Source of the DNA: Promethearchaeum syntrophicum
GTDB taxonomy: Archaea > Asgardarchaeota > Lokiarchaeia > Sigyniarchaeales > Promethearchaeaceae
Length of the DNA: 32,000 bases
Reading direction: 5' to 3'
Assembly (NCBI RefSeq): GCF_008000775.2
Contig: NZ_CP042905.2
Coordinates: forward strand, 4,292,195-4,324,194
Shown: piece after piece, positions 3,001-31,003 of the stretch
How the letters are laid out: every line of letters begins with the position of its first letter
Position numbering within the stretch: the first letter of the stretch is position 1
Program-made: the position numbers and the translations under genes
The notes under the pieces: model-generated
Told to the model about the DNA's origin: nothing
The model's database searches: none
The model's input: only the letters and a program-made list of their open reading frames with translations

Positions 3001-3564
3001 CCAAATTCAGTCATGGATGAAATATCAGATTCAGTTCAAGATCTTTTACCTGTCTTCTTATTTGTTGACGAAGATGAAAGAAAAAAGAACAGAATCTTAA
3101 CAACCATTAAAGAATTACTTGCTCAAGCATATTATAGTAATTACAATAATGAAATTCTCGAAAATATAGATAGAATAGATAGTTTAATAAGCTTTAAACG
3201 TAGTTTCGAGACAGACTTAACATCTCTTCAGGAACAGTTCATTTTCTTTAGTAAACAGTACACAAGTGACGGAAAACAGTTTTATGACCAAGGTAATGTC
3301 TTTTTGCAATTAGTTAAGAAAGAGGAACCTGAATTCTATGATTATGCTCTTCGTTCTTTTGAAGTCGCGATCGATTTAGCTCCATTTGAATTTTTTACAC
3401 CTAATTGTTTATTGCAAATGGCAATTATTTTGGAGCATAAAGGGGAACATTTGGAAGCGAAGAAGAAATATGAAGAAGCTTTAGAAATTTTCAGCAGTTT
3501 AGATGAAATTGAAAAAATGAAAGAATGTGAACAAGCACTTACTTCTATTCAGCAACATCTTTAA
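34..3564 (+). CDS. Large membrane-anchored HEAT-repeat / TPR protein (polytopic N-terminal domain, soluble repeat domain)
   Basis: An uninterrupted 1176-aa ORF. A GGAGGAGG Shine-Dalgarno-like motif at 18-25 lies 8 nt upstream of the ATG. Residues 1 to ~370 are consecutive hydrophobic helices. Residues ~470-900 carry recurring HEAT/PBS-lyase-like units ('RYILDALGDIGEK', 'DASVRSEAVYTLGLL', 'DPDPQVRSQTIFALGKIG', 'FIRYVACDAIGNF'). The C-terminal ~100 aa look TPR-like ('YDYALRSFEVAIDLAP', 'EAKKKYEEALEIF'). Confidence 0.7.
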   Translation: MALIDNLIIILYSVVGLSTFLFGFSLVFKNLRKINRIEREKFDLGDWLASIGFGVMFTLAILFALNLSIESFIITEDPLPSIAGFLLVIMIGILLIYPLWEVIFLGRPTADSVHDFHKFLESRILDRFKGKMAYLVSFGIFIVIYIIPVIVFTLLLDYSFIEILFVWFLLFPLFFLNYFAANGIVSAILQTSFRKTISSDIIEASNTGKNTKKMIINVFVMMITWLPFLLNAYNIANPIIRAINGYELLEKDPIMGIISLVTTVPLGIKGFFNKFWNKKSKTKTIDFLFSGYIFIAIGINMLINFFQINEGLVVSVFSQVGFLSSLSAIFSDYTLLVPIIVIQSLITLVYGLIIFFQKNSDFHSDIRLRATSIAFGIKDLDDLIKKDDPGAKKKRKEKERKYDYLTLYKSLLLPPVFSKYGVDLNEQVRLKARQYLLLISINSTEHAQKIVDFVFETSIDPKSSVKFKYSKYSVKEAINLLGDIGKKYPEFVMTRMIEALPESDIQIQRYILDALGDIGEKKENLIVILDEIEPLLESTRYELRTAAFQAISEMVMEGSNDDKEFIQIALKKVYEILSECYKNPDIIDTAMESLVQMSARIANDLDISKIIPFIHYSEGKDKDTNDYIIQNAIIVLGYMVYYNIDTFPLEDIKNYLKDKRNFIRYVACDAIGNFILKCPDNFKESLLVNLMIISLYDDDDDVCEMCTESITEFLVLNKNYEPIIDGQKISVLNYYLKALSSSERKIAEKASEALKSISPLYEENIYPQLEEIIKKQENLELVRDSLHVIALSGIEEHLSVDLNLIYGLTEHTDASVRSEAVYTLGLLSKNRTDIDENYIIKLIDDPDPQVRSQTIFALGKIGINKPDKVIPILIQGFFEIDRQSDDKINEVELFAESLGLIGAEHPSNEIIVSLQSGLMGDSNPFTKDVMAHALGAIGHGMIRSGNATRRIENEAFYNSVSWLRSQSKKEYTIGNLVIIFIEALQLKSIPNSVMDEISDSVQDLLPVFLFVDEDERKKNRILTTIKELLAQAYYSNYNNEILENIDRIDSLISFKRSFETDLTSLQEQFIFFSKQYTSDGKQFYDQGNVFLQLVKKEEPEFYDYALRSFEVAIDLAPFEFFTPNCLLQMAIILEHKGEHLEAKKKYEEALEIFSSLDEIEKMKECEQALTSIQQHL

Positions 3565-6520: not shown

Positions 6521-9500
6521 GTGAATACTATGACCGAAATGAAAGGATTGGCAGAAAACATTGAAAAAACTAAATCAATGGAGTTATCCCCAATTCTAGA
6601 TGAGAAAAAAGAGGTCATAAAAGATTTTAAAAATAAGATCAAATTAGAAAAAATTATTTTAGAAGACTTCATCTCATTCGATTATAATGAAGTAATATTT
6701 CATCCTGAATTTACAATCATTACTGGTCCTAATGGTGTTGGCAAATCTTCAATATATCATGCTCTTAAATTTGTACTAGGTTCTAATGATTATGATGGAC
6801 GATATAATAAATGGTCTAATTTTATTAGAACAGGACAAAAATATGCAATTGTAACTCTTTACTTGCAATTCTCTGGAAAAAAATATTGTCTTAAAAGAAC
6901 CGTTTTTAAGGATAAAGCCCCAAAATTTTCTTTTCAAGGTCCAGATGAAAAAGAATTTCACGATGTTTCAGCAAAAAAGATTCAAGAATTTGTAGATAAA
7001 ATTGGTATTGATCCTGACCATGTGTTCTCATTTATGTCTCAAGGTAAAATTGGATCTCTTAAAAATTTTAAAGATGAAGCCTTGTGCACATTTGTGGAAA
7101 AAGGATTAGGACTTAATATTCTTAGAGAAAATATATTAAGTCAAAAAGAACGAATAATTTATTTAAAAAAGGAATTTTCTGTGTTAATTTCACAACGAGA
7201 CAGTATGAAATATCAACTAGTTGAATTAGAACCTAAATTAAAACGTTTAGAGAAAAAAAGATCTTTGCTAAGTAAATTAGAAGGGTTAGATAATGAGCTA
7301 TTATGGGCACAAAAAGAAGATATTATAAAACAAATTGATGTATATCGCGATCAGATTCATTTTAAAGAAAATTCAATTAAAGATCTTGAATTAAATATCA
7401 GTACTCTTCAAGAAGAAGAAAACTCCATTGAAGAGAATTTGAAACAAGAAAAAGACGAATACAAGATTACAATTGATATTTTTGCACAAAAAAAAGCGCA
7501 TCTTGAAATTTTAAAAAAAGAAATTAATAAATGGACCTCTGAAAAGAATCAAATTGCTGATAAAATCGAGAAAATATCTAAAGATATAGATAAATTACAG
7601 TTAGATATTAATAAACAAGGTTTTGAGCTTAAATCTTATCAAAAGAGCATGGATGATTTGAAAACCTTAACTGGAGAAGCAAAACTTTTATTAAAATCAT
7701 ATGAAGATGAGGAACGCTCTTTAAATAAAAAATTCATTAAATATCGGGAAATATTGTTTGAATTTGATTCAAAAACACAAATAGTTTCAAATTTAGAAGA
7801 CAATTTGAAAGAAATAGAAGAAAGTCATAACAAAAAGGAATCAGAAATCAATGAAAAAGCCAAGGAAATTCAAAAAATCGACCATGAATTGAAGGATTTC
7901 AAATGGTTTATGGAAAATCCAAAAAAAGATTTACAAATTAAAATGAAAGCTTTAGTAGAAAAATATCAAAAATCAATAAATATCTTCAATGACGATTTAG
8001 TACAATTACAAATTCAATATAAAACATTAACAAGTGAGATAGAACGCGTTAAACAATCTGTTCATGATAAAAGCATGCCTAAACCAAAATCCATAATATC
8101 CATGATGGATGAAATTAAACAGAGGAACATGCAAAGTATTGGTCCGTTGATTGATTATATAACTTTTGATCCTTTATATCAAATGGCGGTTGAATCAATC
8201 TTTGGTTCAAGAGTCTTATATAGTTTCATTGCTAAAAATCATGAAGAATTTGCCCTACTTAAAAATATGGCTCAAAGATATAATGCAAGATGTAATCTAT
8301 ATTTAGAAAAACAAAAAAACCTAACTCCTTTACCTTCATTGAATGATTCTCAAGAAATGGGAGTATTTGGGTATTTAGCAGAAATAATAAAACCTACAAT
8401 CCCGGAACCTGCAATTCAAAAAGTTATTCATTCCGTAGCAAGTATAACACTTGTTGTTAAGGATCATATTGCTGGAACTAACTACACTCAAAAATTTAAA
8501 TCCAGAAATTGGATTGTAACCTTAGATGGAGAACAATTAAGACCGAAAAAATTTGTTTTAGAAGCGCGTCCTTATATTTCAAATAATAAACAAAAAATTA
8601 CAAGTGTCTCTCAGGCAAAAATAATATTAAATGAATTAAACGAAAAATCTGAAAGAAATCGTCATAATTATAATAAGCGAAGTTCAGATCTACAAAACCT
8701 TAAAGAAAAACATAAGAAAGTATTGAAAGATTTAGCACAAATTGATGTCCTATTAGTAAAATATAAACAAAAGGAAATAACTACTAAGGTTAAAAACGCT
8801 CTAATAAATGAGAGAGAGAAAAATTATACTAAAATTCAAGAAAAAAAGAAAAAGATTGAAGTTATTAAAAAAGAGATCGAAATTTTGAAAGAAAAATTAC
8901 CCGATGATTCAATATTAAATCATGATCGACTAACTCAACTACCAAATTTAATAGTTACTCAAAAAAATAAGATAACAGAATATGAATCTAAAAAAGACAT
9001 TAATATTCAGCAAATAAATGATATAAAAATTAAGGAAAATCTTCTTTCAAATGAAATAAATGCAAAAACAAAAGAAAAACAAGAGATAATTTCGGATTTA
9101 ACTTCTCAAGATAAACATTATTATGATCTCATTCAAGAAAATATCAAATTAACAGGTCAAATTAAAAACATTAAAAATGAAATTGAAGAGAGCAACACAA
9201 AAATCACTTCCTTAGAATTGGAAGAAAAAAAGATTTCTGAAGAAAAAAATCAACTGTTAATTCGGAAGGCCACGTTGAAAAATTCGATCGATGATATTAA
9301 ATCCTACATTGAAGAGAAAGAGAAGAAAATTGAAAGAATTAGCAATATTTTAAAGGAGATCAAAGAAAAAGTTTACCCAAAGCGTCCAATCATCGAAATT
9401 CAAAATGATATCGAAGAAATAAATAAAATCTTGAGATCTTATTTCGATGTAGATGAAAATATCATATTAGAAAAACAACGAATTGAGGATTCAATAAAAA

Positions 9501-10072
9501 AAATATTAGAAAAGCAAGAAACATCAGATAAAGAGATAAAAGCAGCAAAAGAAGCAGAATTAAAAATTGAACAAAACTATCTTAACAAATTCGAAAAATC
9601 TGTAGATATTTTAGAAGATCTCGTAAATAAAAAATTAAAATTTACCCAAACTGATTTTAATGTGAATTTAAATTTAGAAGGGGAAATTGAAGAATTTAAA
9701 TTAACAATTAAAGCCGTTTCAACAAAAAATCAAAAAAATGTTCGTCCTTTTACAGCTTTGAGTGGTGGGGAACAATCTATGGTTGGAATTAGTCTAATGT
9801 TATCATTGCACTATTTTAATCCTTCTCCTTTCAATATCTACGATGAAATTGAAATGTTTTTGGACAACCTAAACGCAGAAATCATCGCAAAATTAATCTT
9901 CGAAATTACAACAAGTGGAATTCAATGCATTTTAATAATGCCAGATTCTTCCATTTCAATATTATATTATGCAAATAAAGTCATTGGGATTAGTAAAAAT
10001 GGAACCAATGGTTCATCAACTGTGCATTATGCCAAGGCGCGAAAAAATTCTAATTTCCAAACTCTTAATTAG
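6521..10072 (+). CDS. SMC-family chromosome-organisation ATPase with hinge; head motifs resemble Smc5/6
   Basis: Walker A 'GPNGVGKS' (6725-6748). Q-loop-like 'FSFMSQGKIG'. Very long Lys/Glu-rich coiled coils. The central hinge-like region has 'IGPLIDYITFDPLYQMAVESIFGSRVLYSFIAKNHEEFALLKNMAQ' and 'ITLVVKDHIAGTNY...WIVTLDGEQLRP'. Signature motif 'LSGGEQS' (~9758-9778) and Walker B/D-loop 'FNIYDEIEMFLD'. 'ILIMPDSS' occupies the usual H-loop position. The start could be GTG 6521 or ATG 6530. Confidence 0.88.
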   Translation: MNTMTEMKGLAENIEKTKSMELSPILDEKKEVIKDFKNKIKLEKIILEDFISFDYNEVIFHPEFTIITGPNGVGKSSIYHALKFVLGSNDYDGRYNKWSNFIRTGQKYAIVTLYLQFSGKKYCLKRTVFKDKAPKFSFQGPDEKEFHDVSAKKIQEFVDKIGIDPDHVFSFMSQGKIGSLKNFKDEALCTFVEKGLGLNILRENILSQKERIIYLKKEFSVLISQRDSMKYQLVELEPKLKRLEKKRSLLSKLEGLDNELLWAQKEDIIKQIDVYRDQIHFKENSIKDLELNISTLQEEENSIEENLKQEKDEYKITIDIFAQKKAHLEILKKEINKWTSEKNQIADKIEKISKDIDKLQLDINKQGFELKSYQKSMDDLKTLTGEAKLLLKSYEDEERSLNKKFIKYREILFEFDSKTQIVSNLEDNLKEIEESHNKKESEINEKAKEIQKIDHELKDFKWFMENPKKDLQIKMKALVEKYQKSINIFNDDLVQLQIQYKTLTSEIERVKQSVHDKSMPKPKSIISMMDEIKQRNMQSIGPLIDYITFDPLYQMAVESIFGSRVLYSFIAKNHEEFALLKNMAQRYNARCNLYLEKQKNLTPLPSLNDSQEMGVFGYLAEIIKPTIPEPAIQKVIHSVASITLVVKDHIAGTNYTQKFKSRNWIVTLDGEQLRPKKFVLEARPYISNNKQKITSVSQAKIILNELNEKSERNRHNYNKRSSDLQNLKEKHKKVLKDLAQIDVLLVKYKQKEITTKVKNALINEREKNYTKIQEKKKKIEVIKKEIEILKEKLPDDSILNHDRLTQLPNLIVTQKNKITEYESKKDINIQQINDIKIKENLLSNEINAKTKEKQEIISDLTSQDKHYYDLIQENIKLTGQIKNIKNEIEESNTKITSLELEEKKISEEKNQLLIRKATLKNSIDDIKSYIEEKEKKIERISNILKEIKEKVYPKRPIIEIQNDIEEINKILRSYFDVDENIILEKQRIEDSIKKILEKQETSDKEIKAAKEAELKIEQNYLNKFEKSVDILEDLVNKKLKFTQTDFNVNLNLEGEIEEFKLTIKAVSTKNQKNVRPFTALSGGEQSMVGISLMLSLHYFNPSPFNIYDEIEMFLDNLNAEIIAKLIFEITTSGIQCILIMPDSSISILYYANKVIGISKNGTNGSSTVHYAKARKNSNFQTLN

Positions 10073-12633: not shown

Positions 12634-13710
12634 CTACTTCTGCATCATGGCAATTATGGTGCTTACAAGCGGAAGTTCATACTGCAAGAAATTATGTCCT
12701 CCCGAATTTAAAATCTCCCAATTATTATTTTCTGAGATTAATTTTGCGACATCTCTATTTTCTAAGAAACTTTCAAATGAAATAATTTTATCATTTTTTG
12801 CGTGAACTAGAAATAGCTTCTTCGAAGTGAAATCAACCCAATCAGCATCATTATTAAAACTTCTTCTTAACTGAGCCAATTGTAATTTGGGTGAAAGTTC
12901 ATAATTTACTTCATCTAAAGGATTCATCTTTACCCCAAAAAAAGTGTATCTGAGCCATAACCACCAATTTTTTTTGAATGTAATTGGGGATTGGGGAATA
13001 TTATTTCTATAATTGGACATTGCAGATACAGCAATTATTTTTTCAACAGAATCATCAGCTAATCCTTGTTTTATAGAAGCGAGTGATCCAAGACTAATAC
13101 CAACCAGATATATTGTCCGATCACCCAAAATGGAATCATTTTTCACATATTTAATTACATCCTTCAAATCACGGGTTATTTCAACAAATTGGCTTGTTTT
13201 TCCTGCTTTTCTTGATTTTCCGGATCCTCTACTATCAAAAGTTAACACGTCATAACCGGACAAGGCAATAGGGATAGTGATATGGCGTGTGTAAATACAA
13301 TCATCTGAAAATCCATGACTAAATATTACAACAGGGGATTTTGGGGGGGTTCCATCCTTATGCAAGATTTCCCCGTATAAGGTGGGATTTTCATTAGAAT
13401 TGCTTTCATCATTCCTATTAATGTCAAGATTTTGATCTTTTTTAGACCAGAGTATTGGGATTTGAACTGATTTTATTTTTATTTGTAAAGGTTCAACCCT
13501 ATGCCATCTAAATTGCCAGAAATCTCTCAACTCAAAATACAAAGCCCAACAGAGCCACGTAAAAGCAAATGTCATTACGGATAAATAGATGCATCTCCAG
13601 AAATCATTGCCAAAAAGAACGAAATTAACATAATATATGTATGCGGCCAGAGAAAAATCAACAATAAATAAAAGAATATGTTTGGGGCGGATTATTATAC
13701 TATTTTTCAA
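12634..13710 (-). CDS. Membrane-anchored alpha/beta-fold hydrolase
   Basis: Two N-terminal hydrophobic helices. 'PVVIFSHGFSDD' is the HG oxyanion region. 'YLVGISLGSLAS' is the G-x-S-x-G nucleophile elbow. 'HAKNDKII' and 'GGHNF' supply the candidate Asp and His of the catalytic triad. Confidence 0.8.
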   Translation of the reverse strand: MKNSIIIRPKHILLFIVDFSLAAYIYYVNFVLFGNDFWRCIYLSVMTFAFTWLCWALYFELRDFWQFRWHRVEPLQIKIKSVQIPILWSKKDQNLDINRNDESNSNENPTLYGEILHKDGTPPKSPVVIFSHGFSDDCIYTRHITIPIALSGYDVLTFDSRGSGKSRKAGKTSQFVEITRDLKDVIKYVKNDSILGDRTIYLVGISLGSLASIKQGLADDSVEKIIAVSAMSNYRNNIPQSPITFKKNWWLWLRYTFFGVKMNPLDEVNYELSPKLQLAQLRRSFNNDADWVDFTSKKLFLVHAKNDKIISFESFLENRDVAKLISENNNWEILNSGGHNFLQYELPLVSTIIAMMQK

Positions 13711-13746
13711 CTAAATTCTCCTTGTTTTCATTTGGTCATATGGTTT

Positions 13747-16245
13747 TTATAGAATATTTTTAAAATCTTCAATTATTTTCTTACTATTTTTTTTATTGCC
13801 CGAATTATTTAATAAGTTTCTAATTTTTTCTTCAATTTCATTTGATATTTTTTTCCCACCCCGAACGGAAGGTTCAAAATTTTGAATGTAATCTACCATA
13901 TCATCAGGGAGATCATAGATTTTACCCAAAATAATGTCACAAATATCGATAATATTTTTCATTTCCGAAGTGTTAAACCTGCGGTGTTCCTTATCAAAAC
14001 ATTGCATGAGTGATTTCATTAAAAAGGAAGAAAATTCTTTAAGAAGGTCAAAAAATGTCTTTAATTTATCTACAAGATCTTGAGAAAGGGGAAAAGCTTT
14101 CATTATATCAGAATTCATGTGCCTTCCATCACTATAAATTCTAAACCATACGTAATACAGTGAACTGTTAATTAGAATTAAGATAAAATATTTCAACCCT
14201 TCTATATTTCTTGATATTTCTACCAGTGCAATCTGCGTTCCATAATAAGGTGGTTTTTCCCAAGCATTATACCAATAATTTCCTGATATTCTAACGGATA
14301 TTAAATCTTCAACCTTTTTTCCTTCTTTCTCAAATTGCATCAATTTATTTCTATACTCATCAATATTTCTAATAATTAAGAATCTGTTTAAAATATCGCC
14401 TAAAATTAGTAATTTTTCATTAGAATTTAGAGTATAATGTTCTGAGAGCAACTCCAAAAATTCTCTTGCCCTTTTTTCACCTATTTTGGGAAGTCTGTGC
14501 TTTTTATCAAAAGAAACTCCTATATTTTTTCCTAATAGAAAATTATTAGCCAGTACATATTTAATATTTCGAAGATCTGGCATTTTTCTAAACATATTTG
14601 TTGTCAGAATGTCTGAAAATTGATTTTTATTTAATTTTATGGAATTCTTGTTTATACATTGAATAATTGAAACAGATTGTGTCATTTTGGTAAAAAATCG
14701 GCATTTATCTCTGTCAAAAGATGCAATTTTACTTATTTCATAGGAATTTACGATTTTTTGGCGCGTTTTAGAAAGATCTTTACTAAAACATATAGCATAA
14801 CTAGTTAAAAATGCAATTATACCTTTGTTTCGATTGAGATCAATGGCCCGTTCAATGAAAACTGACGAAATTTCATTCAAGAATGAATAAAATGGATCGA
14901 TTTCTTTTTTCTCAGAATTTGAAAGTAAATTTCCATACGGAGGGTTTCCTAAAATAATATCAAATCCAAAATTATTCGAGTTAATTGGAAAAACATCTGG
15001 AAATTCAACATTCCAATGAAAGGGTTTAATTTTGGTATTCTTTTTTATTTCTTTGGTATCTTTTTCACTCCAATTAATAGAACCTAATAAAGAATTTCCT
15101 GTGAGAATATTTAATCTCAATAACCTAGGATTCAAAAATCTTGAAGATGAAAAATCCCATGAATCAATATAATTTAGAAAAAGTCTAATTTTCGCAATAA
15201 TTACAGCGCGTGGATTAATATCTACTCCATATATAGCTGACGAAAATAAAAATTTCTTTAGAATGGCAATGGAATCTTTAAATTTTTCAAAGGAGTTTAA
15301 ATCTATTATCTCATCAGAAACTGTTATTAACAATACTCCCTTAATTTGGTAATTTCTTGATGCCGTCCATATATATTTGTATAATTTAATTAATATTTTT
15401 GTTATACTAGCTAGAAAATGCCCAGATCCAACAGCTGGGTCCAAAATTTTAAAATTATTAATCTTTACAAAAAAATCTTGAATTTTATTAAGTTTTAACT
15501 TAAATTCATATTGATCTAGTTCTGATTTAAAGAAATTCTCACAATTTATCCAAAAAGGAACTTTTAAATTATCTGAAAACAATTTGGCATTTAGACTAGA
15601 TTCAGCAAGGAAATCACAGATATTATCCGGAGTATAATATGCCCCCGTTGATTTTTTAGTGTCATCTGATAAAATTTTCTCAAACAGAGCTCCAATGATA
15701 AAATCATTAATTGGACCCCCCACAATTTCCTGCAAGATGAACATATTAAATAATGGAAGTGAGTTAATTATTGATTCAGGAATTTTTTTGGATATTTTGA
15801 TTTTTTCAAGTTGTGTACTATCAATATCTTGAAAAAATGCTTCATTTGGTAAGGACTTGTGAATAAACCCATCCCAAAGAAAACCGTGATTATCTCTCAG
15901 GAAATAATCTCCTATAATAACGAGTTCTTCTTGGTTACTATTCCTTGATATGACGGGTAATTTTTTAGAATTCGAAGGAAAAATACTATTAAAAAATTTA
16001 GTTAAGAATTCAGAATAAAATTGGTGATTTAGGGATGACTTTTTTCGATTAAAGTGATTTAAAAAATATTCAGAATCTTTATTAAAACACAGCTTTCGTT
16101 GCAAATACCAGAGAGCGGTCATTAAAAGCACAAATCTATTTATTTTTTCTGGATTTATATCTGACTTGCTGATTCTTTGCAAGTATTCGCAAGATTTTTT
16201 AAAAATATTAAAAAATGAATCAATTTTTTTATTCTGTAGGCTCAA
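13747..16245 (-). CDS. N6-adenine DNA methyltransferase, gamma class (Eco57I/TaqI-like, with C-terminal target-recognition domain)
   Basis: 'GAYYTPDNICDFLAE' (motif X region). 'ILDPAVGSGHFL' (motif I, SAM binding). 'GVDINPRAVIIAKIRL'. 'FDIILGNPPYG' (motif IV NPPY, ~14933-14949). C-terminal 'LINSSLYYVWFRIYS...MKAFPL' resembles the TaqI-like specificity domain. Only ~190 aa precede the methyltransferase core and I see no PD-(D/E)xK nuclease motif. The start is TTG 16245, 17 nt inside the upstream gene. Confidence 0.85.
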   Translation of the reverse strand: MSLQNKKIDSFFNIFKKSCEYLQRISKSDINPEKINRFVLLMTALWYLQRKLCFNKDSEYFLNHFNRKKSSLNHQFYSEFLTKFFNSIFPSNSKKLPVISRNSNQEELVIIGDYFLRDNHGFLWDGFIHKSLPNEAFFQDIDSTQLEKIKISKKIPESIINSLPLFNMFILQEIVGGPINDFIIGALFEKILSDDTKKSTGAYYTPDNICDFLAESSLNAKLFSDNLKVPFWINCENFFKSELDQYEFKLKLNKIQDFFVKINNFKILDPAVGSGHFLASITKILIKLYKYIWTASRNYQIKGVLLITVSDEIIDLNSFEKFKDSIAILKKFLFSSAIYGVDINPRAVIIAKIRLFLNYIDSWDFSSSRFLNPRLLRLNILTGNSLLGSINWSEKDTKEIKKNTKIKPFHWNVEFPDVFPINSNNFGFDIILGNPPYGNLLSNSEKKEIDPFYSFLNEISSVFIERAIDLNRNKGIIAFLTSYAICFSKDLSKTRQKIVNSYEISKIASFDRDKCRFFTKMTQSVSIIQCINKNSIKLNKNQFSDILTTNMFRKMPDLRNIKYVLANNFLLGKNIGVSFDKKHRLPKIGEKRAREFLELLSEHYTLNSNEKLLILGDILNRFLIIRNIDEYRNKLMQFEKEGKKVEDLISVRISGNYWYNAWEKPPYYGTQIALVEISRNIEGLKYFILILINSSLYYVWFRIYSDGRHMNSDIMKAFPLSQDLVDKLKTFFDLLKEFSSFLMKSLMQCFDKEHRRFNTSEMKNIIDICDIILGKIYDLPDDMVDYIQNFEPSVRGGKKISNEIEEKIRNLLNNSGNKKNSKKIIEDFKNIL

Positions 16246-19058: not shown

Positions 19059-20546
19059 TTAATCCGCTTCAAAAAATGTTTTATATGCTAAATAAGTGGA
19101 AAATAGATCTGCTATGTGAATAATTTCATAAGGGCTATGCATATTTATTACCGGAGTCCCCGCATCGACAACATCACAATTAAAGGATTCTGCAAAATAT
19201 TTTGCGATAGTTCCTCCTCCGCCTTCATCAACCTTTCCCAACTCTACAATTTGATATGGAACTGTTTTTTCATCGTAAATTTTTCTGATATAAGCCATTA
19301 TTTCTGCAGGAACATCACTTGAACCATATTTCCCTCCACCACCTGTATGTTTTTCTATTACTATCCCTTTTCCTAATACTGCAGCGTTAAGAGGGTCATG
19401 AACTGATGGAAAAATCGGATTTATTGCAGATCCTACATCAGCAGATAGCATAAGTGTATTTGACAGAGTTAAATGGAGATTAGTTAAAGTTTCAGAAACT
19501 CCTGTTCTTACCATAATATCATTCATTACAAAACGAATCCATGCAGATTGTGCGCCGGTACTACCATTGCTACCTATTTCTTCTTTATCAAAAATTGACA
19601 TAATAGCGGTATTTTTAGGTGCTCCTTTAAGATCAATTAAAGATTTTATTCCTGTCCATGAACAAACCCCATCATCATGACCTGCCGCACCTATCATGCT
19701 TCTATCCAATCCGACGTATCTTGGGGGAAGTCCAGAAACCAAATTTAATTCGGCAGATTGAAGATCAGCTTCGGTAATTCCATGTTTTTCATTCAATATC
19801 TTTAAAATATTAATTTTGAATTTTTCTTTAACCTTTTTTGCATCCTTATTATTGTTTTCATCAATCGGAAGTGCTCCAGCAAGAACATTTAATTCTTCTC
19901 CTTTAAAAGTCTCAGGTGATTTTCTTTTATTTTGAACGTTTTTAGATAAATGGGGTAAAATATCTGGAATGGTAAAAACTGGATCATCGGGATTCTTCCC
20001 AATATCAATTGGAATCTTAGTGCCATCTTTTTTCACGATTAAACCAGTTAAATGTAATGGAATTGTAGCCCATTGATATTTCTTTATCCCACCGTAATAG
20101 TGAGTTTTAAAAAGTGCAACAGCAGCTTTTCCGTCCTCATATAATGGCCGCATTTTTAAATCCAATCGGGGAGTGTCAATATGAGATCCAATCATGTGGA
20201 TTTTTTCTATTAATGATTTTTGACCAATCACTGCCATAGCAACGTTTTTTTCTCTATTGACATAATAAATTTTATCACCGGGGTTCAATTTGTTAATATT
20301 TTTACCAATCTCTAATCTTTTAAATCCATTTTCTTCAGCTTTCTTTATTGTCCAAGTTGTTCTTTCTCGTTCGGTCCGGGCATTTTTCAAAAAGTCGAAA
20401 TATTCATCGGCAAGTTTCAAAGTTTCCTGTTTTTGGTCATCAGTAAATATTTCCCATCCATGTTTAAATTTATTAACCAATTTATCCTCCAAAGATGGTT
20501 CTTTAGGTTTATCTTCCGACTTACTTTCTGTTGTAAAATTGTTCAT
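19059..20546 (-). CDS. M18-family aminopeptidase (aminopeptidase 1 / aspartyl aminopeptidase-like)
   Basis: 'MIGSHIDTPRLDLK', 'GAAGHDDGVC', 'FDKEEIGSNGSTGAQS' and 'DAGTPVINMHSPYEI' match the metal-ligand blocks of M18 peptidases. The length (~495 aa) is typical. Confidence 0.85.
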   Translation of the reverse strand: MNNFTTESKSEDKPKEPSLEDKLVNKFKHGWEIFTDDQKQETLKLADEYFDFLKNARTERERTTWTIKKAEENGFKRLEIGKNINKLNPGDKIYYVNREKNVAMAVIGQKSLIEKIHMIGSHIDTPRLDLKMRPLYEDGKAAVALFKTHYYGGIKKYQWATIPLHLTGLIVKKDGTKIPIDIGKNPDDPVFTIPDILPHLSKNVQNKRKSPETFKGEELNVLAGALPIDENNNKDAKKVKEKFKINILKILNEKHGITEADLQSAELNLVSGLPPRYVGLDRSMIGAAGHDDGVCSWTGIKSLIDLKGAPKNTAIMSIFDKEEIGSNGSTGAQSAWIRFVMNDIMVRTGVSETLTNLHLTLSNTLMLSADVGSAINPIFPSVHDPLNAAVLGKGIVIEKHTGGGGKYGSSDVPAEIMAYIRKIYDEKTVPYQIVELGKVDEGGGGTIAKYFAESFNCDVVDAGTPVINMHSPYEIIHIADLFSTYLAYKTFFEAD

Positions 20547-20733
20547 TATATTTTTTTATAGTGAAACTTTTTTTATAGGCTTTCTTCAATTTAATGTTCA
20601 TTTGTTAAATGGGGATTTATGAGGCGATTATTGATCAATTAGAATAAAGAATTATGGCTTAAATTACGTAATTGCATTTGTATTTTTCTAGTTTTAACAT
20701 TACAAAGGAAGGAAATGGAGTGATATTAATAAA

Positions 20734-22200
20734 ATGATAACGCAACGAGTAGATGAGAATATCTACGAAGTTCCAGCAGATATGAAATTAATTAAAGTTG
20801 AAGATAAAATCCTAAATTTTAACATGAAAGTGCCAGCGCGAATCTATGCTAATGAATATTTGATGGAAAGAATTAGTAAAGATAAAAGTATTGATCAAAT
20901 TACAAATGTTGCATGTTTACCTGGAATTAGAAAACATGTAATTGCGATGAGCGATGCTCACCAAGGATATGGATTCTGTATAGGAGGAGTTGCTGCCACG
21001 GATATTGAAGGAGGAGCAATATCCCCTGGAGGAGTTGGTTATGATATTAATTGTGGCGTGAGGTTATTAAAAACAGGTTTAGAGTACAGTGAGGTTTCAG
21101 CCCAATTACCAGAATTAACAGAAGGATTGTTTCACAATATACCAAGTGGTTTAGGTTCTAAGGGAAAACTTCATATAACACCTACTGATTTAAATCAGGT
21201 TTTGGATGAAGGAATTAATTGGGCGATAGAAAAAGGATTCGGGTATGATAAAGATCGTGAATTTTGTGAAGATCATGGTTTTACTCAAGGAGCTGACAGT
21301 TCTTTAGTTTCAAAAAGAGCAAAGGATAGAGGGATAAGACAACTAGGATCTTTAGGTTCAGGAAATCATTTCATCGAAATTCAACGTGTTGAAGAAATAT
21401 TCGATGACCGGGCAGCAAAAATAATGGGAATCCAAAAAAATCAAGTTACCATGATGATTCATACTGGAAGTCGTGCAATGGGTCATCAAGTATGTACTGA
21501 TTCTTTGCAGGAAATCGATCATTTAATGCATCGAAATGGGATTATTGCACCAGATCGAGAGTTGGGTTATGCCATAAGTGGAACTAAAGAAGCAGATCGA
21601 TATTTAGCTCAAATGCGGGCAGCAGCTAACTTTGCTTGGACTAATCGGCATATCATCATGCACTGGGCCAGAGAAACTTTTCAATCGGTCTTAGGGCTTG
21701 AACCTTCACAAATGGAATTAATTTATGGATTAGCACATAATATTCTTAAACAAGAAGAACATGATCTTGGTAATGGAATGCGTGGAATGGTGAATGTTCA
21801 TAGAAAAGGCGCAACCCGAGCATTCCCTCCTGGTCATCCCGATGTCCCTGATAAGTATAAAGAAATCGGTCAACCCGTGCTAATACCTGGAAGCATGGGG
21901 ACGTCATCATATTTATGTGTTGGCCAAGAGAAAGCAATGGATTTGAGTTTTGCTAGCACAGCGCATGGAGGAGGTAGAGAAATGAGTCGTTCAAAAGCAA
22001 AACGTCAATTTTGGGGTAAAACCATTAAACAAGAATTAGGAAAACAAGGGATTGTAGTTCGAGCAGCCTCCCTCAAAATTTTAGCAGAAGAAGCTCCTTT
22101 AGCCTATAAAAATATAGATGAAGTAGTGGGAGTTTCACATAATTTAGGGATTATTAAGAAAGTTGCGAAGTTAATTCCGATAGGTGTAACAAAAGGATAA
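20734..22200 (+). CDS. rtcB: RNA-splicing ligase RtcB (3'-phosphate/5'-hydroxyl RNA ligase)
   Basis: 'SDAHQGYGFCIGGVAA', 'GGVGYDINCGVR', 'LGSGNHFIEIQ', 'MIHTGSRAMGHQV', 'LAHNIL' and 'HRKGATRAFP' are present. These are the canonical RtcB metal- and GMP-binding blocks. No intein is present. Confidence 0.95.
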   Translation: MITQRVDENIYEVPADMKLIKVEDKILNFNMKVPARIYANEYLMERISKDKSIDQITNVACLPGIRKHVIAMSDAHQGYGFCIGGVAATDIEGGAISPGGVGYDINCGVRLLKTGLEYSEVSAQLPELTEGLFHNIPSGLGSKGKLHITPTDLNQVLDEGINWAIEKGFGYDKDREFCEDHGFTQGADSSLVSKRAKDRGIRQLGSLGSGNHFIEIQRVEEIFDDRAAKIMGIQKNQVTMMIHTGSRAMGHQVCTDSLQEIDHLMHRNGIIAPDRELGYAISGTKEADRYLAQMRAAANFAWTNRHIIMHWARETFQSVLGLEPSQMELIYGLAHNILKQEEHDLGNGMRGMVNVHRKGATRAFPPGHPDVPDKYKEIGQPVLIPGSMGTSSYLCVGQEKAMDLSFASTAHGGGREMSRSKAKRQFWGKTIKQELGKQGIVVRAASLKILAEEAPLAYKNIDEVVGVSHNLGIIKKVAKLIPIGVTKG

Positions 22201-27030: not shown

Positions 27031-27540
27031 ATGGCTATGCTATACGATGATGAGCACTTCTGTAAACATTGCAATAAAAAAGTTGCTCATGTCCATTTTT
27101 GCACCCCAGCAGAGGAATCTAAGAAATTTAAATGCGAATATTGTGAAACTGAAAACATTAACCACCGTCATATGTGTTCTGAGAAATTGAAACACATTAA
27201 ATTCTACTGTAAAAATTGTGGAGCAGTTGCTGTGGATGAAACTCATGTATGTAATCCAATACCAATAGAAGAAGAATTGAAAGAACATTGGGATAAAATT
27301 AGTGAAAAATCAGAGTCTGAAGTTTTAACTTCTTGTGGTATATGTGGACAACCCGTAAGTCCTCCCGGTCATTATTGTGATCAGAAATTTCCTTACGTTT
27401 GTAAGTATTGCGGGCAGGAAATCACTGCTGGTTATCACCAATGTAAAAAAAAATCAGGAAAATATAAATTTATTTGTAAAACGTGTGGTCGATTAGGCGT
27501 TAAATCAACAGATGTTTGCGCACCGGCTCCGATTGATTAA
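27031..27540 (+). CDS. Cys/His-rich protein made of six tandem C-x2-C-x7-8-H-x-C modules (putative multi-zinc-knuckle protein)
   Basis: The six modules are 'CKHCNKKVAHVHFC', 'CEYCETENINHRHMC', 'CKNCGAVAVDETHVC', 'CGICGQPVSPPGHYC', 'CKYCGQEITAGYHQC' and 'CKTCGRLGVKSTDVC'. The His is replaced by Asp in the last one. Modules 1, 3 and 6 are each followed by a Pro-containing tail. ATG start, 21 nt after the ASCH gene. Confidence 0.7.
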   Translation: MAMLYDDEHFCKHCNKKVAHVHFCTPAEESKKFKCEYCETENINHRHMCSEKLKHIKFYCKNCGAVAVDETHVCNPIPIEEELKEHWDKISEKSESEVLTSCGICGQPVSPPGHYCDQKFPYVCKYCGQEITAGYHQCKKKSGKYKFICKTCGRLGVKSTDVCAPAPID

Positions 27541-27831: not shown

Positions 27832-28788
27832 ATGGTCGTTATAGCAGATGGACGGTTTGAACTACCAGAAAGATACTTGTATTCTTCACAACATGTTTTT
27901 TTGGATACAAAAAAAAAGATCGCGGGTCTGGATCAAATAGGATATGCATATTTATCTAACCCCACTGAATTCAAAGTCTTAGTTGAAGAGAAGGTACAAA
28001 TGAATGAACCTATTGCAGTTATTACAACCGATCGTGGAATTACGACACTTTATTCTCCATGTGCGGGAAAAATTAAAACTATAAACCAAGATCCTTTAAA
28101 AAATATGGAATTGGATACTTATACGAAAGGTTTTATCTTGGAATTTGAATCAATTTCTGAAATTGACCCAACACTAATCACTGGAGATAAAATTGAACCT
28201 TGGGCTAATCATGAAGTAAAAACATTACTCAAAAATGAATATTCATTTAAAGTTATCGAAATTGGGGATTCAGCAGCAGGTAAAACCGCAATAAAAGTTA
28301 GATTCACCGATGATTATTTTAAGCAGGATCTAAAAACAACTTTAGGTGTCGATTTCGGATCCAAAGAATTAAAATGTGAATATATAGCAGACGACACATT
28401 ATTTGCAGGGGTGTATCATTTTAATGCAAAATTGAATGTATGGGATGCTGCAGGACAAGCTCACTTCGAAAAAATTCGCGGAATGTATTATAGGGATGCT
28501 AAAGGAGCCCTACTTTGTTTTGATGTTAACAATCCAGTTTCATTTAAGAATTTGGATACTTGGGTTGATGAATTAGATGAAAATGTTGGACGGAAGGTGC
28601 CAGTATTATTAGTGGGCAATAAAATTGACTTAGAACGCCGTGTGAAGGCTAAAGATGCAGAAGATTATGCAGAAAAGCGAGGTTTCATTGGTTATGTGGA
28701 ATGTTCTGCCAAAACAGGCATCGGTATTCAAGAAGCATTTATGAAATTAGCTCTTGCGATTTATAAATATGAAGAAGGTTTAAGTTAA
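27832..28788 (+). CDS. Rab/Ras-like small GTPase fused to an N-terminal GcvH-like (lipoyl/biotinyl-fold) domain
   Basis: In the GTPase half (aa ~139-318), G1 is 'GDSAAGKT' (28264-28287) and switch I is 'TLGVDF'. G3 is 'WDAAGQ', G4 is 'GNKIDL' and G5 is 'CSAKTG'. There is no C-terminal prenylation Cys. The N-terminal half (aa ~8-115) reads 'LPERYLYSSQHVFLD...IAGLDQIGYAYL....FKVLVEEKVQMNEPIAVITTDRGITTLYSPCAGKIKTINQDPLKN...DTYTKGFILEFE'. It is collinear with glycine-cleavage H protein (IP..l.Yt..HEW......vGIT.yAq..LG.vvfVelPevG..v..g...gvvESVKaasdlYsPvsGev.evN..L...Pel.n.dPy.eGW......). The lipoyl Lys position is Arg68 (CGT 28033-28035). Confidence 0.85.
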   Translation: MVVIADGRFELPERYLYSSQHVFLDTKKKIAGLDQIGYAYLSNPTEFKVLVEEKVQMNEPIAVITTDRGITTLYSPCAGKIKTINQDPLKNMELDTYTKGFILEFESISEIDPTLITGDKIEPWANHEVKTLLKNEYSFKVIEIGDSAAGKTAIKVRFTDDYFKQDLKTTLGVDFGSKELKCEYIADDTLFAGVYHFNAKLNVWDAAGQAHFEKIRGMYYRDAKGALLCFDVNNPVSFKNLDTWVDELDENVGRKVPVLLVGNKIDLERRVKAKDAEDYAEKRGFIGYVECSAKTGIGIQEAFMKLALAIYKYEEGLS

Positions 28789-28793
28789 ATTCA

Positions 28794-29924
28794 TTAAGCT
28801 TTTTTTTTATGGGAACGAATAAGCCCTTTAATTAGAGAAATTCTTAGTAAAGCAGTAGATAAGATAAAAGACTGAAATATGGGTGCTAGTGGTGTAAAAT
28901 TGGATTCAAAATTAACCACAGAAATCCTAGGTTCATCTTGAAAATTCTTTATTAAATGAGTATTATTACTAATTAATGCCATGCTTCCAGCGCGATTTAG
29001 GATTAGATCTACTAGACGGGGAAGCGTATCTTTTTCAGTTTCTCCTGGTTCAAAAGCTCCAATCATAATGCATTTTATTTTTGTATTAATTGCTTTTCTT
29101 TCAAAAATTTGAAAGGGTCCATGAAAAAAGAGACCTAAAGATATCCCTTCACACATTGAACCGATAAAACTGTTTGCGTTAAGTGCTAATAATTTGCAGG
29201 AAGATTCGCTTACAGGATCTCGAGAAATTAAATATACAATTTTAAAATCTTGACCTAAGAAATCAACTAAAATCTTTGTTTGTGTAGGTTCAACTTTTCT
29301 ATATTCTTTTAATTCCGATATAAATTTCATAATTTTACTATGGATGTCTTCGGAAATTGGATCTTTTCCAAGTAATATCTGTGAAATGAAATAAAGGACT
29401 ACAATTGTATGCGGAAAAGATTTTGATGACAAAACTATTTCAGAATCAAGATATATAGGAAGATTTATTCCACAATAGGAAGAAATGGGTGATTTTTTAT
29501 TATTTGTTACTAACCATATAAGGTTTGGATCTATGTTTAGTATGTGTAATTGCTCAATTGCATTTTTTAATAAACGAGATTTACCAGATGTGGAAATAAA
29601 GATATACAGGGTGCTTGTATCATATTCCTTAGGAAGAAAATAATCATAAAATTCGGTCATTTCAATATTCTGCCACGTAAAAGAGACACTTTCCTTGTCA
29701 TTCATTAAAAGATATTTTGGAATTTCAGAGGCGAAAAAATTGAATGTATTTCCAATAAACACAACATGAGAGAACTGTAATGTTGATAGAATTTCTTGAA
29801 TATGGTTAATAATTTCCTTTCCTTCTTTATAAAAATAGTTATCAACACATTTTTCAAGTGATTCTGGTAAGGATAAAAATTCCTCGCGAATGTCTTCATA
29901 AAAAAAAGGCCATTTTTCAGTCAT
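28794..29924 (-). CDS. Double SIS-domain protein (GlmS isomerase-domain-like; GlmD/AgaS/FrlB family), paralog 2
   Basis: 'VVFIGNTFNFFASEIPKYLL' corresponds to the GlmS 'ACGTSYHAG' block. 'LYIFISTSGKSRLLKNAIEQL' corresponds to 'ISQSGETADT'. The second half has 'FFHGPFQIFE'. It is about 360 aa long, collinear with its neighbour, and its start ATG shares one nt with the neighbour's TAA (TAATG at 29922-29926). Confidence 0.75.
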   Translation of the reverse strand: MTEKWPFFYEDIREEFLSLPESLEKCVDNYFYKEGKEIINHIQEILSTLQFSHVVFIGNTFNFFASEIPKYLLMNDKESVSFTWQNIEMTEFYDYFLPKEYDTSTLYIFISTSGKSRLLKNAIEQLHILNIDPNLIWLVTNNKKSPISSYCGINLPIYLDSEIVLSSKSFPHTIVVLYFISQILLGKDPISEDIHSKIMKFISELKEYRKVEPTQTKILVDFLGQDFKIVYLISRDPVSESSCKLLALNANSFIGSMCEGISLGLFFHGPFQIFERKAINTKIKCIMIGAFEPGETEKDTLPRLVDLILNRAGSMALISNNTHLIKNFQDEPRISVVNFESNFTPLAPIFQSFILSTALLRISLIKGLIRSHKKKA

Positions 29925-31003
29925 TATTCAATAACACCTCTTCGCAATGCTTGATCTAATAACAGAAATTGAACTAATAATATTTCAAAAATTGGTGCTA
30001 GATATGAATTAGTTGTCGTATGTTCGAAAACCCAAACATTAGGATTTGCCCTACCTAACGATGATAATTGTCTGCTATTATTTATTAATACTACTTTTCC
30101 TGAACCTAATTTTTTAGTAATCATATCAATTAATCGTAGTGTATCTTCAATGCTTGAATTATCACTAATGACTAAAATACAACGGAAGGAATCATCAACT
30201 AATTGAAAAGGTCCATGTAAAAATAACCCAATATTAAAACCTTGACCAAAAAGACGTACATATGATTTAGAATTTAAAGCGCCTTGATAAGCAGTAGAAA
30301 GGCTTGCACCTTTAGATATAAAATATAAATTGTTATAATCTACTCCCAAAAAATCGTTAATTGATTTTAGATGAAATGCCCAATCGGTGCAATAAAATTT
30401 AGTTTCAAAAATTAGATTTCTTATCTCTTCTTCTACTTTTGGGGAAATAGGTTCCTCTTTCATGAATACCCGAGCAATTAAATATAGGATAAGAATGGTA
30501 GTAATATAAGAAATTGAGCCGATTACCTGTTGTGAACCCGACATCATAGGAAAATGAAAATGACTGTTTTTTGCTAAAAATGATTCAGGATTATTGGATA
30601 CGCCACATATTTGCTCAGCAGTAATATTCTTTTGTAGCAATTTTTCAATAGATTGTTTGATTTGTATTGATTCTCCAGATTCTGATATAAAAACAAATAA
30701 ACAATTTTTACAAAGTTGACTAGCATTAAAGTAATTTAAAAAATCTTCCACTTCATAATGTGCACAAAAAAATTCACTTGGATTTAGTTTTTTGGTTATA
30801 TAATAATAAGGAATGATTGAAGCGAAGTAATTATATGTATGACCAACAAAGATTATTCTTTGAAAACCTTTAGATTCGATATGTTGCCCCAATTTTTTAA
30901 GTAAGCCCTCTCCTTCTGCAAGGTAATAACGAAGACATCTTAAAAGTGCTTTAGGGATTGAAAGAAAATCTTCCAGGATAGCGTCAAATCTGAGTTTGGT
31001 CAT
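29924..31003 (-). CDS. Double SIS-domain protein (GlmS isomerase-domain-like; GlmD/AgaS/FrlB family), paralog 1
   Basis: The blocks 'IIFVGHTYNYFASIIPYYYI', 'LFVFISESGESIQIKQSIEKL', 'VIGSISYITTILILYLIA' and 'LFLHGPFQLVDD' are collinear with the sugar-isomerase half of GlmS as I remember it. Confidence 0.75.
   Translation of the reverse strand: MTKLRFDAILEDFLSIPKALLRCLRYYLAEGEGLLKKLGQHIESKGFQRIIFVGHTYNYFASIIPYYYITKKLNPSEFFCAHYEVEDFLNYFNASQLCKNCLFVFISESGESIQIKQSIEKLLQKNITAEQICGVSNNPESFLAKNSHFHFPMMSGSQQVIGSISYITTILILYLIARVFMKEEPISPKVEEEIRNLIFETKFYCTDWAFHLKSINDFLGVDYNNLYFISKGASLSTAYQGALNSKSYVRLFGQGFNIGLFLHGPFQLVDDSFRCILVISDNSSIEDTLRLIDMITKKLGSGKVVLINNSRQLSSLGRANPNVWVFEHTTTNSYLAPIFEILLVQFLLLDQALRRGVIE

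Follow-up and report, generated by a model that had tools for sequence, protein, structure and literature searches.

A Rab-like small GTPase fused to a lysine-less GcvH-like domain in Promethearchaeum syntrophicum and related Asgard archaea, and the redox gene neighbourhoods of its family

The 32,000-nucleotide stretch of the Promethearchaeum (Prometheoarchaeum) syntrophicum MK-D1 genome analyzed here (contig NZ_CP042905.2, positions 4,292,195 to 4,324,194; hereafter the window) contains, at positions 27832..28788 of the forward strand, an intact open reading frame (ORF) with an ATG start and no internal stop or frameshift. Its predicted product of 318 amino acids (aa), in which a GcvH-like domain is joined to a Rab-like small GTPase, is 100% identical to QEE14702.1 / WP_147661646.1, a protein annotated in the database as “GTP-binding protein” and nothing more. 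The same genome encodes a paralog, WP_147662223.1, sharing 60% identity with the window protein. Both domains had been proposed in an earlier, sequence-only reading of the window and both were recovered, the G domain by Pfam Ras and the GcvH fold by profile comparisons and by AlphaFold2 (AF2) modelling with Foldseek. The distinguished features of the gene are as follows.

27832..28788, + strand: complete ORF, GcvH-like domain fused to Rab-like small GTPase, 318 aa
27832..28227, + strand: N-terminal domain of predicted GcvH fold, aa 1-132 (profile versus PDB, PF01597, AF2/Foldseek)
28009..28086, + strand: hairpin equivalent to the lipoyl-lysine hairpin, aa 60-85, PIAVITTDRGITTLYSPCAGKIKTIN, flanks conserved
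28033..28035, + strand: codon of Arg68 (cgt) at the lipoyl-lysine position
28183..28227, + strand: C-terminal helix of the N-domain, aa 118-132, GDKIEPWANHEVKTL, with the motif G-x(1-3)-[ILVA]-xx-W-xxx-[ED]
28237..28767, + strand: Rab-like small GTPase domain, aa 136-312 (Pfam Ras; PDB 7ezb)
28264..28287, + strand: G1/P-loop GDSAAGKT, aa 145-152; G145, G150, K151 and T152 invariant in 37 homologs
28339..28356, + strand: switch I / RabF1-like TLGVDF, aa 170-175; T170 invariant
28387..28416, + strand: family-specific 10-residue insertion in the beta2-beta3 (interswitch) hairpin, aa 186-195, from alignment gaps
28441..28458, + strand: G3/switch II WDAAGQ, aa 204-209; W204, D205, G208 and catalytic Q209 invariant
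28618..28629, + strand: G4 NKID, aa 263-266; N, K and D invariant
28705..28713, + strand: G5 SAK, aa 292-294

Among 5.8e9 proteins searched, 149 homologs were found; 106 are 300-345 aa long and have the same two-domain layout with a conserved junction. They originate from the cultured MK-D1, Lokiarchaeum ossiferum and Harpocratesius, and from metagenome-assembled genomes (MAGs) labelled Lokiarchaeia, Promethearchaeota, Helarchaeota, Hodarchaeota and Sigynarchaeota. The architecture is therefore shared by more than 100 full-length homologs from Lokiarchaeia and related Asgard MAGs.

The C-terminal part of the window protein matched Pfam Ras (PF00071) over aa 140-311 with E=5.1e-46 (156.7 bits; curated cutoff 21.6). 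The best PDB relative of the G domain is a Thorarchaeota Rab (7ezb, E=3.3e-34), followed in the PDB sequence search by dozens of eukaryotic Rab2/11/1/8/10 structures. The RabF-like strings LGVDF, KLNVW and YYRDA are legible in the protein sequence, and each of the strings previously cited as Rab-type – TLGVDF, WDAAGQ, NKIDL (aa 263-267) and SAK – was located in the ORF. The five predicted G-motifs are all there (GDSAAGKT, T170, WDAAGQ, NKID and SAK), and their key residues, i.e. G/GKT of the P-loop, Thr170, D205/G208/Q209, N263/K264/D266 and S292/A293, are invariant among 37 aligned full-length homologs. This invariance argues that selection keeps a working GTP switch with a catalytic Gln, and the window gene product is predicted to be a competent Rab-like GTP switch possessing the catalytic glutamine.

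Two further peculiarities of the G domain, pointed out when only the letters had been inspected, were also borne out. The alignments place gaps in the beta2-beta3 hairpin, which is longer by 10 residues than that of the Thorarchaeota Rab and by 12 than that of human Rab2B, and this interswitch insertion is found throughout the 37 aligned family members. The protein terminates with ...YKYEEGLS and contains no Cys after residue 291, so it lacks the prenylation motif of eukaryotic Rabs.

Several divergent branches of the fusion family (P0126, P0127, P0129 and P0133) have lost the G3 glutamine. Their switch II is degenerate (WDISGN, WEIVTQ, WDVGGS, WDIGST) and their P-loops are altered too, so that these proteins are possible pseudo-GTPase paralogs.

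Compared on its own with family models, the window sequence matched GCV_H (PF01597) at E=0.023/0.004 (15-17.4 bits, under the curated cutoff of 22.2), Biotin_lipoyl (PF00364) at E=0.003/0.0008, TIGR00527 at E=0.0045 (17 bits; cutoff 115.85) and NF002270 with 15.6 bits (cutoff 117). A profile built from 31 N-domains of the family matched 12 distinct GcvH sequences of the PDB at E<1e-4, headed by Mycobacterium tuberculosis GcvH (E=3.2e-7, profile positions 10-107), with E2 lipoyl and biotinyl domains ranking after GcvH. PF01597 was matched individually by 28 of these 31 domains (best 7e-11). In a Foldseek search of the PDB with the AF2 model of aa 1-132 (pLDDT 93.2, pTM 0.85), the top 22 matches were all GcvH/GcvH-L (TM 0.60-0.74), and the GcvH matches span the whole chain, C-terminal helix included. 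Because both the family-level profile and AF2/Foldseek support it, the assignment of the modelled N-terminal domain to the GcvH fold (hybrid barrel-sandwich plus C-terminal helix) is secure, and the collinearity with H protein suspected earlier holds.

In the HMMER alignment the lipoyl-lysine of M. tuberculosis GcvH falls in the column of Arg68, located within ITTDRGITTLYSPCAGKIKTIN (aa 64-85); the replacement of the swinging-arm Lys by Arg was thus read correctly from the sequence. Across the 106 full-length homologs this column is occupied by N (24), Q (20), R (18), K (12), S (9), I (5), T (4) and H (3), while the hairpin flanks are near-fixed (G69 in 103/106, P76 and G79 in 106/106 each). 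Since the flanks are fixed while the lysine column varies, the hairpin appears to have been kept and the modification site lost. As a family, the fusion N-domains are, to judge from this column, not lipoyl carriers.

The relatives of the N-domain were sought by scoring its profile against 1.84e9 cluster representatives. The top of the list is formed by about 13 representatives of the fusion family (E<1e-24). After a score gap come standalone GcvH-like proteins of 140-155 aa that carry the Lys (motifs GKG / AKW), with P0135 (80.6 bits) and P0136 (72 bits) as the closest non-fusion relatives; ordinary GcvH scored a median of 37 bits against the same profile, and about 34 bits in the PDB. The helix motif G-x(1-3)-[ILVA]-xx-W-xxx-[ED] was identified in 29/31 fusion N-domains, in 8/9 members of the P0135 clade and in only 2/111 other GcvH. 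The nearest named relatives of P0135 belong to Promethearchaeota (Asgard) MAGs. In L022/L023 and in L026, a Promethearchaeota MAG, such standalone genes form operons in the order HdrC-like (Fer4_8), HdrB-like (CCG) and GcvH-like (Hdr, heterodisulfide reductase), the stop of the HdrB gene of L026 overlapping the start of the GcvH-like gene, and the P0136 gene adjoins a CCG gene in L025. The corresponding regions are the following.

L022:3185-5052 and L026:4639-6447: HdrC-like, HdrB-like and GcvH-like (Lys-bearing, 140-151 aa) genes
L025:319-1679: CCG gene and standalone GcvH-like gene

As relationships between sequences, these data firmly show that the fusion N-domain descends from a subclade of GcvH-like proteins, the standalone members of which have their genes among or next to those of hdrC/hdrB type. 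By analogy with the sHdr-LbpA system, the Asgard HdrC-HdrB-GcvH-like operons suggest that the disulfide used by an HdrBC outside the methanogens may be that of a lipoyl protein.

The 148 GcvH-like representatives closest to the N-domain (the top 148 of the profile search) are diverse. Only 70 of them have Lys at the lipoyl position. Among them are proteins of about 220-240 aa, in which the GcvH-like domain follows an N-terminal extension of 40-70 residues (that of P0151 begins with a hydrophobic stretch). Others are fusions with a Cys-rich N-terminal part (P0137 and P0145) or very large proteins made of many repeats (P0138 with 1391 aa, P0143 with 2034 aa). Absence of the lysine may be a wider phenomenon among GcvH-like domains.

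The gene neighbourhoods of the fusion were inspected at about 40 loci. Precomputed gene calls were available for 11 of them, and tblastn annotation covered these as well as the loci from genome and metagenome scans, including 25 found by scanning metagenomes with a 29-aa family-specific sub-alignment; loci beyond the 11 were screened by tblastn only, for Hdr, SIS, the small protein p166 and a zinc-ribbon protein. It is firmly established that the fusion gene recurrently adjoins Hdr/Mvh redox modules, SIS genes and p166. Neighbouring genes of interest are listed below.

27031..27540, + strand: upstream neighbour, Cys/His-rich zinc-ribbon-repeat protein of 169 aa, also in L010 and L011; looser association
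28794..29924, − strand: SIS1, 376 aa, GlmS-isomerase-like, without glutaminase domain; conserved convergent neighbour of type A
29924..31003, − strand: SIS2, 359 aa, GlmS-isomerase-like (PDB 3tbf, 1.6e-13)
L004:2853-3362; L006:5977-6477; L007:5957-6466; L011:10985-11464 and 13401-13919; L014:5423-6091: p166/p169 genes
L045:4560-12073: duplicated four-gene cluster, convergent with the fusion gene

Two main arrangements were distinguished. In type A (14 copies) a pair of paralogous, GlmS-isomerase-like SIS genes lies after the GTPase gene and is transcribed towards it. Its members are the window copy, L005 (Harpocratesius), L010 (Promethearchaeum sp.), L011 (L. ossiferum), L012, L027, L028, L035, L036, L038, L044, L046, L047 and L049, with the second SIS gene cut by the contig end in L028 and L036. 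In L009 a SIS2 ortholog follows the GTPase gene co-directionally. The SIS1 and SIS2 proteins are double-SIS paralogs, 31% identical to each other, and neither has a glutaminase domain.

In type B the fusion gene lies directly beside a cluster encoding HdrC-HdrB-HdrA-MvhD(FlpD) and a 2x[4Fe-4S] ferredoxin. This group comprises L004 (the MK-D1 paralog), L006 (L. ossiferum), L007 (Harpocratesius), L014, L029, L030, L032, L034, L037 and L040. Where the downstream flank is present, an Asgard-only protein of 160-175 aa, p166/p169, is usually encoded next, although tblastn found no p166 match in L032. The Hdr neighbours are genuine: HdrC scored 181 against TIGR03290 (cutoff 160), HdrB 403 against TIGR03288 (cutoff 345) and the HdrA2-like protein 818 bits. 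The Hdr cluster is co-directional with the GTPase gene in some loci and divergent in others, hence the adjacency outlived inversions. At the MK-D1 paralog locus the intergenic gaps are 48 bp (ferredoxin-GTPase) and 21 bp (GTPase-p169), and the arrangement looks like an operon.

Other subclades carry variants of these arrangements. In a clade that is just 47% identical (L009, which equals L051, and L050), genes for HdrCBA-MvhD-ferredoxin, the GTPase and SIS are all co-directional. L030 and L036 have the order type B GTPase, p166, type A GTPase, followed in L036 by the SIS-SIS pair (L030 ends at the second GTPase gene), and this order is the signature of a tandem duplication. In L001 the fusion gene neighbours genes for HdrA-like, MvhD, Oxidored_q6, FrhB/Pyr_redox and TusA proteins, and in L045 two copies of an Oxidored_q6 - HdrC - HdrB - NiFe-large-subunit cluster are found by it. 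An unbootstrapped neighbour-joining tree placed L009 basal to types A and B, and the Helarchaeota copies outside.

The L045 cluster encodes an Oxidored_q6 protein resembling a hydrogenase small subunit (454 aa) and a NiFe hydrogenase large-subunit-like protein (443 aa). Its HdrB proteins are 51-53% identical to the HdrB encoded beside the standalone GcvH-like genes.

We consider, with a probability of roughly 45%, that the fusion protein is a GTP-controlled adaptor whose lipoate-free pseudo-carrier domain, descended from Hdr-linked GcvH-like proteins, docks on Hdr-type partners. According to this scheme, standalone Asgard GcvH-like proteins would, by analogy with LbpA, serve HdrBC as lipoyl carriers, and the fused N-domain would have given up the swinging arm while keeping the ancestral docking surface. 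It could then anchor the GTPase on a CCG-domain partner of Hdr type, or on proteins associated with that partner, and the GTP/GDP state, set with the help of the neighbouring small protein, might gate the assembly, activity or location of the redox module. The window copy would be the type A paralog which, after the tandem duplication, kept the SIS pair and in MK-D1 lost direct Hdr adjacency; having lost it, this copy may have shifted to another partner. The partner-binding role that the sequence-only reading gave as an example of repurposing would thereby gain a concrete candidate partner.

A narrower version of the proposal is doubtful at present: that the Rab-like GTPase regulates or assembles the flavin-based electron-bifurcating HdrABC-MvhD complex (and Mvh/HdrBC) via a lysine-less domain mimicking a lipoyl-GcvH-like disulfide substrate of HdrBC. 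If true, part of the Asgard small-GTPase expansion would have first served energy metabolism and not membrane trafficking.

Several observations weigh against the adaptor proposal. The case for docking on an Hdr-type partner is one of guilt by association, and it is weaker for the type A copy of the window, which in MK-D1 has kept only its SIS neighbours; no Hdr gene lies within the 32-kb window. The two Helarchaeota copies (L003 and L008, from one MAG) have neither Hdr nor SIS neighbours. All Hdr-adjacent cases come from Lokiarchaeia, and inherited gene order accounts for part of the pattern. The tree described above carries no support values. The AF2 model of the full-length protein has a pTM of just 0.60 and gives no evidence of a fixed domain-domain interface. 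A few short or one-sided contigs also show no Hdr, SIS or p166 neighbours.

Some of these points fit a different explanation: the GcvH-like domain would serve generically for protein binding or oligomerization, much as longin or roadblock does, its partner would be unrelated to Hdr, and the neighbourhoods would mostly reflect gene order inherited within Lokiarchaeia. Accessory domains are common among such proteins, since 26 of the 74 small GTPases of MK-D1 carry roadblock or longin and others have accessory domains marked “?” (PMC10933270); the Helarchaeota and window copies without Hdr neighbours, and the origin of the positive cases from one class only, agree with it as well. However, inherited order fits less easily with an Hdr adjacency that outlives inversions and holds in clades just 47% identical, with the different Hdr/Mvh modules that flank different subclades (L001 and L045), or with standalone sister proteins that are also encoded in or beside hdrC/hdrB-type genes. 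We regard this explanation as rather unlikely, though it survives best among the alternatives to the Hdr-type adaptor.

Less probable still is that the N-domain acts purely within the molecule, on the switches or the enlarged beta2-beta3 hairpin, as an auto-inhibitor, a lid resembling a guanine-nucleotide dissociation inhibitor or an element assisting a GTPase-activating protein (GAP), and has no external partner of its own. The geometry is suggestive: helix 118-132 enters beta1 of the G domain at residue 136 through a linker of 3 residues, W124 and E128 of this connecting helix are invariant or nearly so in the 37-homolog alignment, and the 10-residue interswitch insertion is found in all the aligned members. 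On the other hand, the pTM of the two-domain model (0.60, versus 0.85 for the N-domain alone) leaves a fixed interface unsupported, and the W/E helix motif is also present in standalone relatives having no G domain, so it did not evolve for contact with one.

It is very improbable that the N-domain still carries a cofactor (lipoyl, octanoyl or another acyl group on another residue) in a glycine cleavage or lipoate relay, with the GTPase regulating that pathway. Retention of the GcvH fold and of most GcvH signature residues, the Lys present at the position in 12/106 homologs, and the lipoate synthases LipS1/S2 encoded by MK-D1 (PMC10332631) would be compatible with such a role. The window protein, however, has Arg68, and a column drifting freely between N, Q, R, K, S, I, T and H is incompatible with an essential modification site. 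Moreover, a complete, separate glycine cleavage system has been reported for MK-D1 (PMC9931769), which bears on the question, raised by the sequence-only reading, of whether the genome has such genes elsewhere. Neither gcvT/P nor lipoate genes occur in the 32-kb window, gcvT/P are missing from the 11 fusion loci having precomputed Pfam annotation of their neighbours, and no lipoate-ligase-type Pfam matches were found among the annotated neighbours of fusion loci. The residual lipoyl-carrier reading was rejected on the drift of the lysine column, the separate glycine cleavage system and the lack of gcvT/P neighbours in the window and at the annotated loci.

Finally, the chance that a chimeric assembly or an overlooked stop codon made one gene out of two is negligible, and this explanation was ruled out by the junction conserved in more than 100 independently assembled proteins of the same 315-321-aa architecture (two L. 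ossiferum genomes included), by the identical protein encoded in the closed 4.32-Mb MK-D1 genome, and by the absence of any stop or frameshift.

The small GTPases of Asgard archaea are commonly taken for precursors of the switches of eukaryotic membrane traffic, and almost none has a known partner. For the adaptor proposed here, three lines – the fused domain, its standalone sisters and the gene neighbourhoods – point to heterodisulfide-reductase/hydrogenase modules and provide a concrete partner hypothesis. These modules are the core of the hydrogen-producing, syntrophic energy metabolism of these organisms. If the link holds, a Rab-like switch would control a redox enzyme complex, a carrier fold would have been reused for docking after loss of its cofactor site, and lipoyl-GcvH-like proteins would become candidates for the physiological substrate of HdrBC outside the methanogens, a question of long standing. 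If it fails, the fusion would simply join the many Asgard GTPase variants with an accessory domain, as one that a published supplement has already labelled.

That supplement belongs to a study that modelled the full set of 74 small GTPases of MK-D1 with AF2 (Tran et al. 2024, Commun Biol, PMC10933270). The Rab clade of its Supplementary Fig. 5 includes “WP_147661646.1-GCVHG” and “WP_147662223.1-GCVHG”, where the letters denote domains according to the legend; in the main text, where neither glycine cleavage nor lipoyl is mentioned, such domains are pooled under “?”. Our literature searches (Asgard GTPase combined with GcvH or glycine cleavage, and the accessions) found no discussion of the fusion beyond this label in the library covered. 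The earlier reading, which knew of no described fusion of this kind, is right as regards its discussion but not as regards the architecture itself, which is already on record and is not categorically new. What appears to be unreported so far is the loss of the lysine, how the fusion is distributed, where its N-domain came from and the Hdr/SIS/p166 neighbourhood.

The window protein was placed in the MK-D1 Rab clade by Tran et al. 2024 (PMC10933270). It resembles Asgard Rab-like GTPases (7EZB and that clade) in its best G-domain match, RabF-like motifs, catalytic Gln and lack of a prenylation Cys, but most members of the clade are single-domain proteins, whereas the fusion adds a 132-aa GcvH-like domain and a 10-residue interswitch insertion. 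Its N-domain has the fold of GcvH (PF01597/TIGR00527) from end to end, is collinear with it and keeps the signatures P-x-x-G...N and D-x-Y-x-x-G. Unlike GcvH, it has no lipoyl-lysine, scores under the family cutoffs, is not encoded beside gcvT/P, has a helix motif of its own and is joined to a GTPase.

The only established precedent for a GcvH-Hdr partnership is LbpA, a GcvH-like protein required by the Hdr-like complexes of sulfur oxidizers (Cao et al. 2018, PMC6067878). The lipoyl arm of LbpA is thought to present the substrate to Hdr active sites; the protein is standalone, its lipoylated lysine is strictly conserved, as two cysteines usually are, and dedicated lipoate-ligase genes accompany its gene (PMC6067878). 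The parallel lies in the genetic coupling of a GcvH-like protein to HdrB/C-type (CCG) proteins, and the standalone Asgard relatives look analogous to LbpA. In contrast, the fusion has neither the lysine nor lipoate-ligase neighbours, and its likeness to LbpA is that of GcvH-like proteins in general. Adjacency to hdr-like genes, as known for LbpA, was observed for the MK-D1 paralog and in L004, L006, L007, L009, L014, L029, L032, L034, L037, L040 and L045, but not for the window copy.

Asgard longin/roadblock GTPases (Rag/Arf-like) likewise combine a small GTPase and a domain for protein interaction in one polypeptide, but the accessory domain of the fusion is a carrier-protein fold and its G domain is Rab-like, not Rag/Arf-like. 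GcvH-L of Streptococcus/Staphylococcus (PDB 5A35; structural match with TMt 0.73) is another GcvH paralog recruited outside glycine cleavage. This protein, which carries a lipoyl group and acts together with a macrodomain/sirtuin pair, differs from the fusion in having no GTPase and in retaining the lysine.

The p166/p169 protein (DSAG12_01132 in MK-D1) is encoded directly downstream of the Hdr-adjacent paralog and, in L. ossiferum, between the type A GTPase gene and the SIS pair. Its family comprises 92 members, and all those with a lineage-specific taxon label are Asgard. No match to the family was found in Pfam, NCBIfam or PDB, and the sole hint of its nature is one UniRef name, “Roadblock/LC7 doma...”. 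The protein is a candidate GTPase regulator (a GAP or a guanine-nucleotide exchange factor).

The Cys/His-rich protein encoded upstream of the fusion gene in the window contains six CxxC-x(8-9)-H-x-C repeats and gave a weak double-zinc-ribbon match. A related gene precedes the GTPase gene in L010 (87% identity) and lies 4 kb upstream of it in L011, while L051 has two divergent copies. A common family for this protein and the 169-aa product encoded after the paralog was also considered, but rejected (BLASTP E=4.6).

The order M18 aminopeptidase - RtcB - ... - GTPase - SIS-SIS is common to MK-D1 (window positions 19059-22200) and Harpocratesius L005. In MK-D1 about 5.6 kb of extra DNA between the RtcB and GTPase genes encodes GTP cyclohydrolase II, an amino-acid permease, an ASCH-domain protein and the zinc-ribbon protein. 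At the opposite end of the window, positions 34-3564 (+ strand) encode a 1176-aa HEAT-repeat protein with weak similarity to Cnd1/stromalin domains, and positions 6521-10072 (+ strand), two genes downstream of it, an SMC-like ATPase of 1183 aa (SMC_N plus hinge). Between them lie genes for a GH77 4-alpha-glucanotransferase and a 421-aa ORF without a Pfam match. The HEAT-repeat and SMC-like genes may represent a condensin/cohesin-like pairing.

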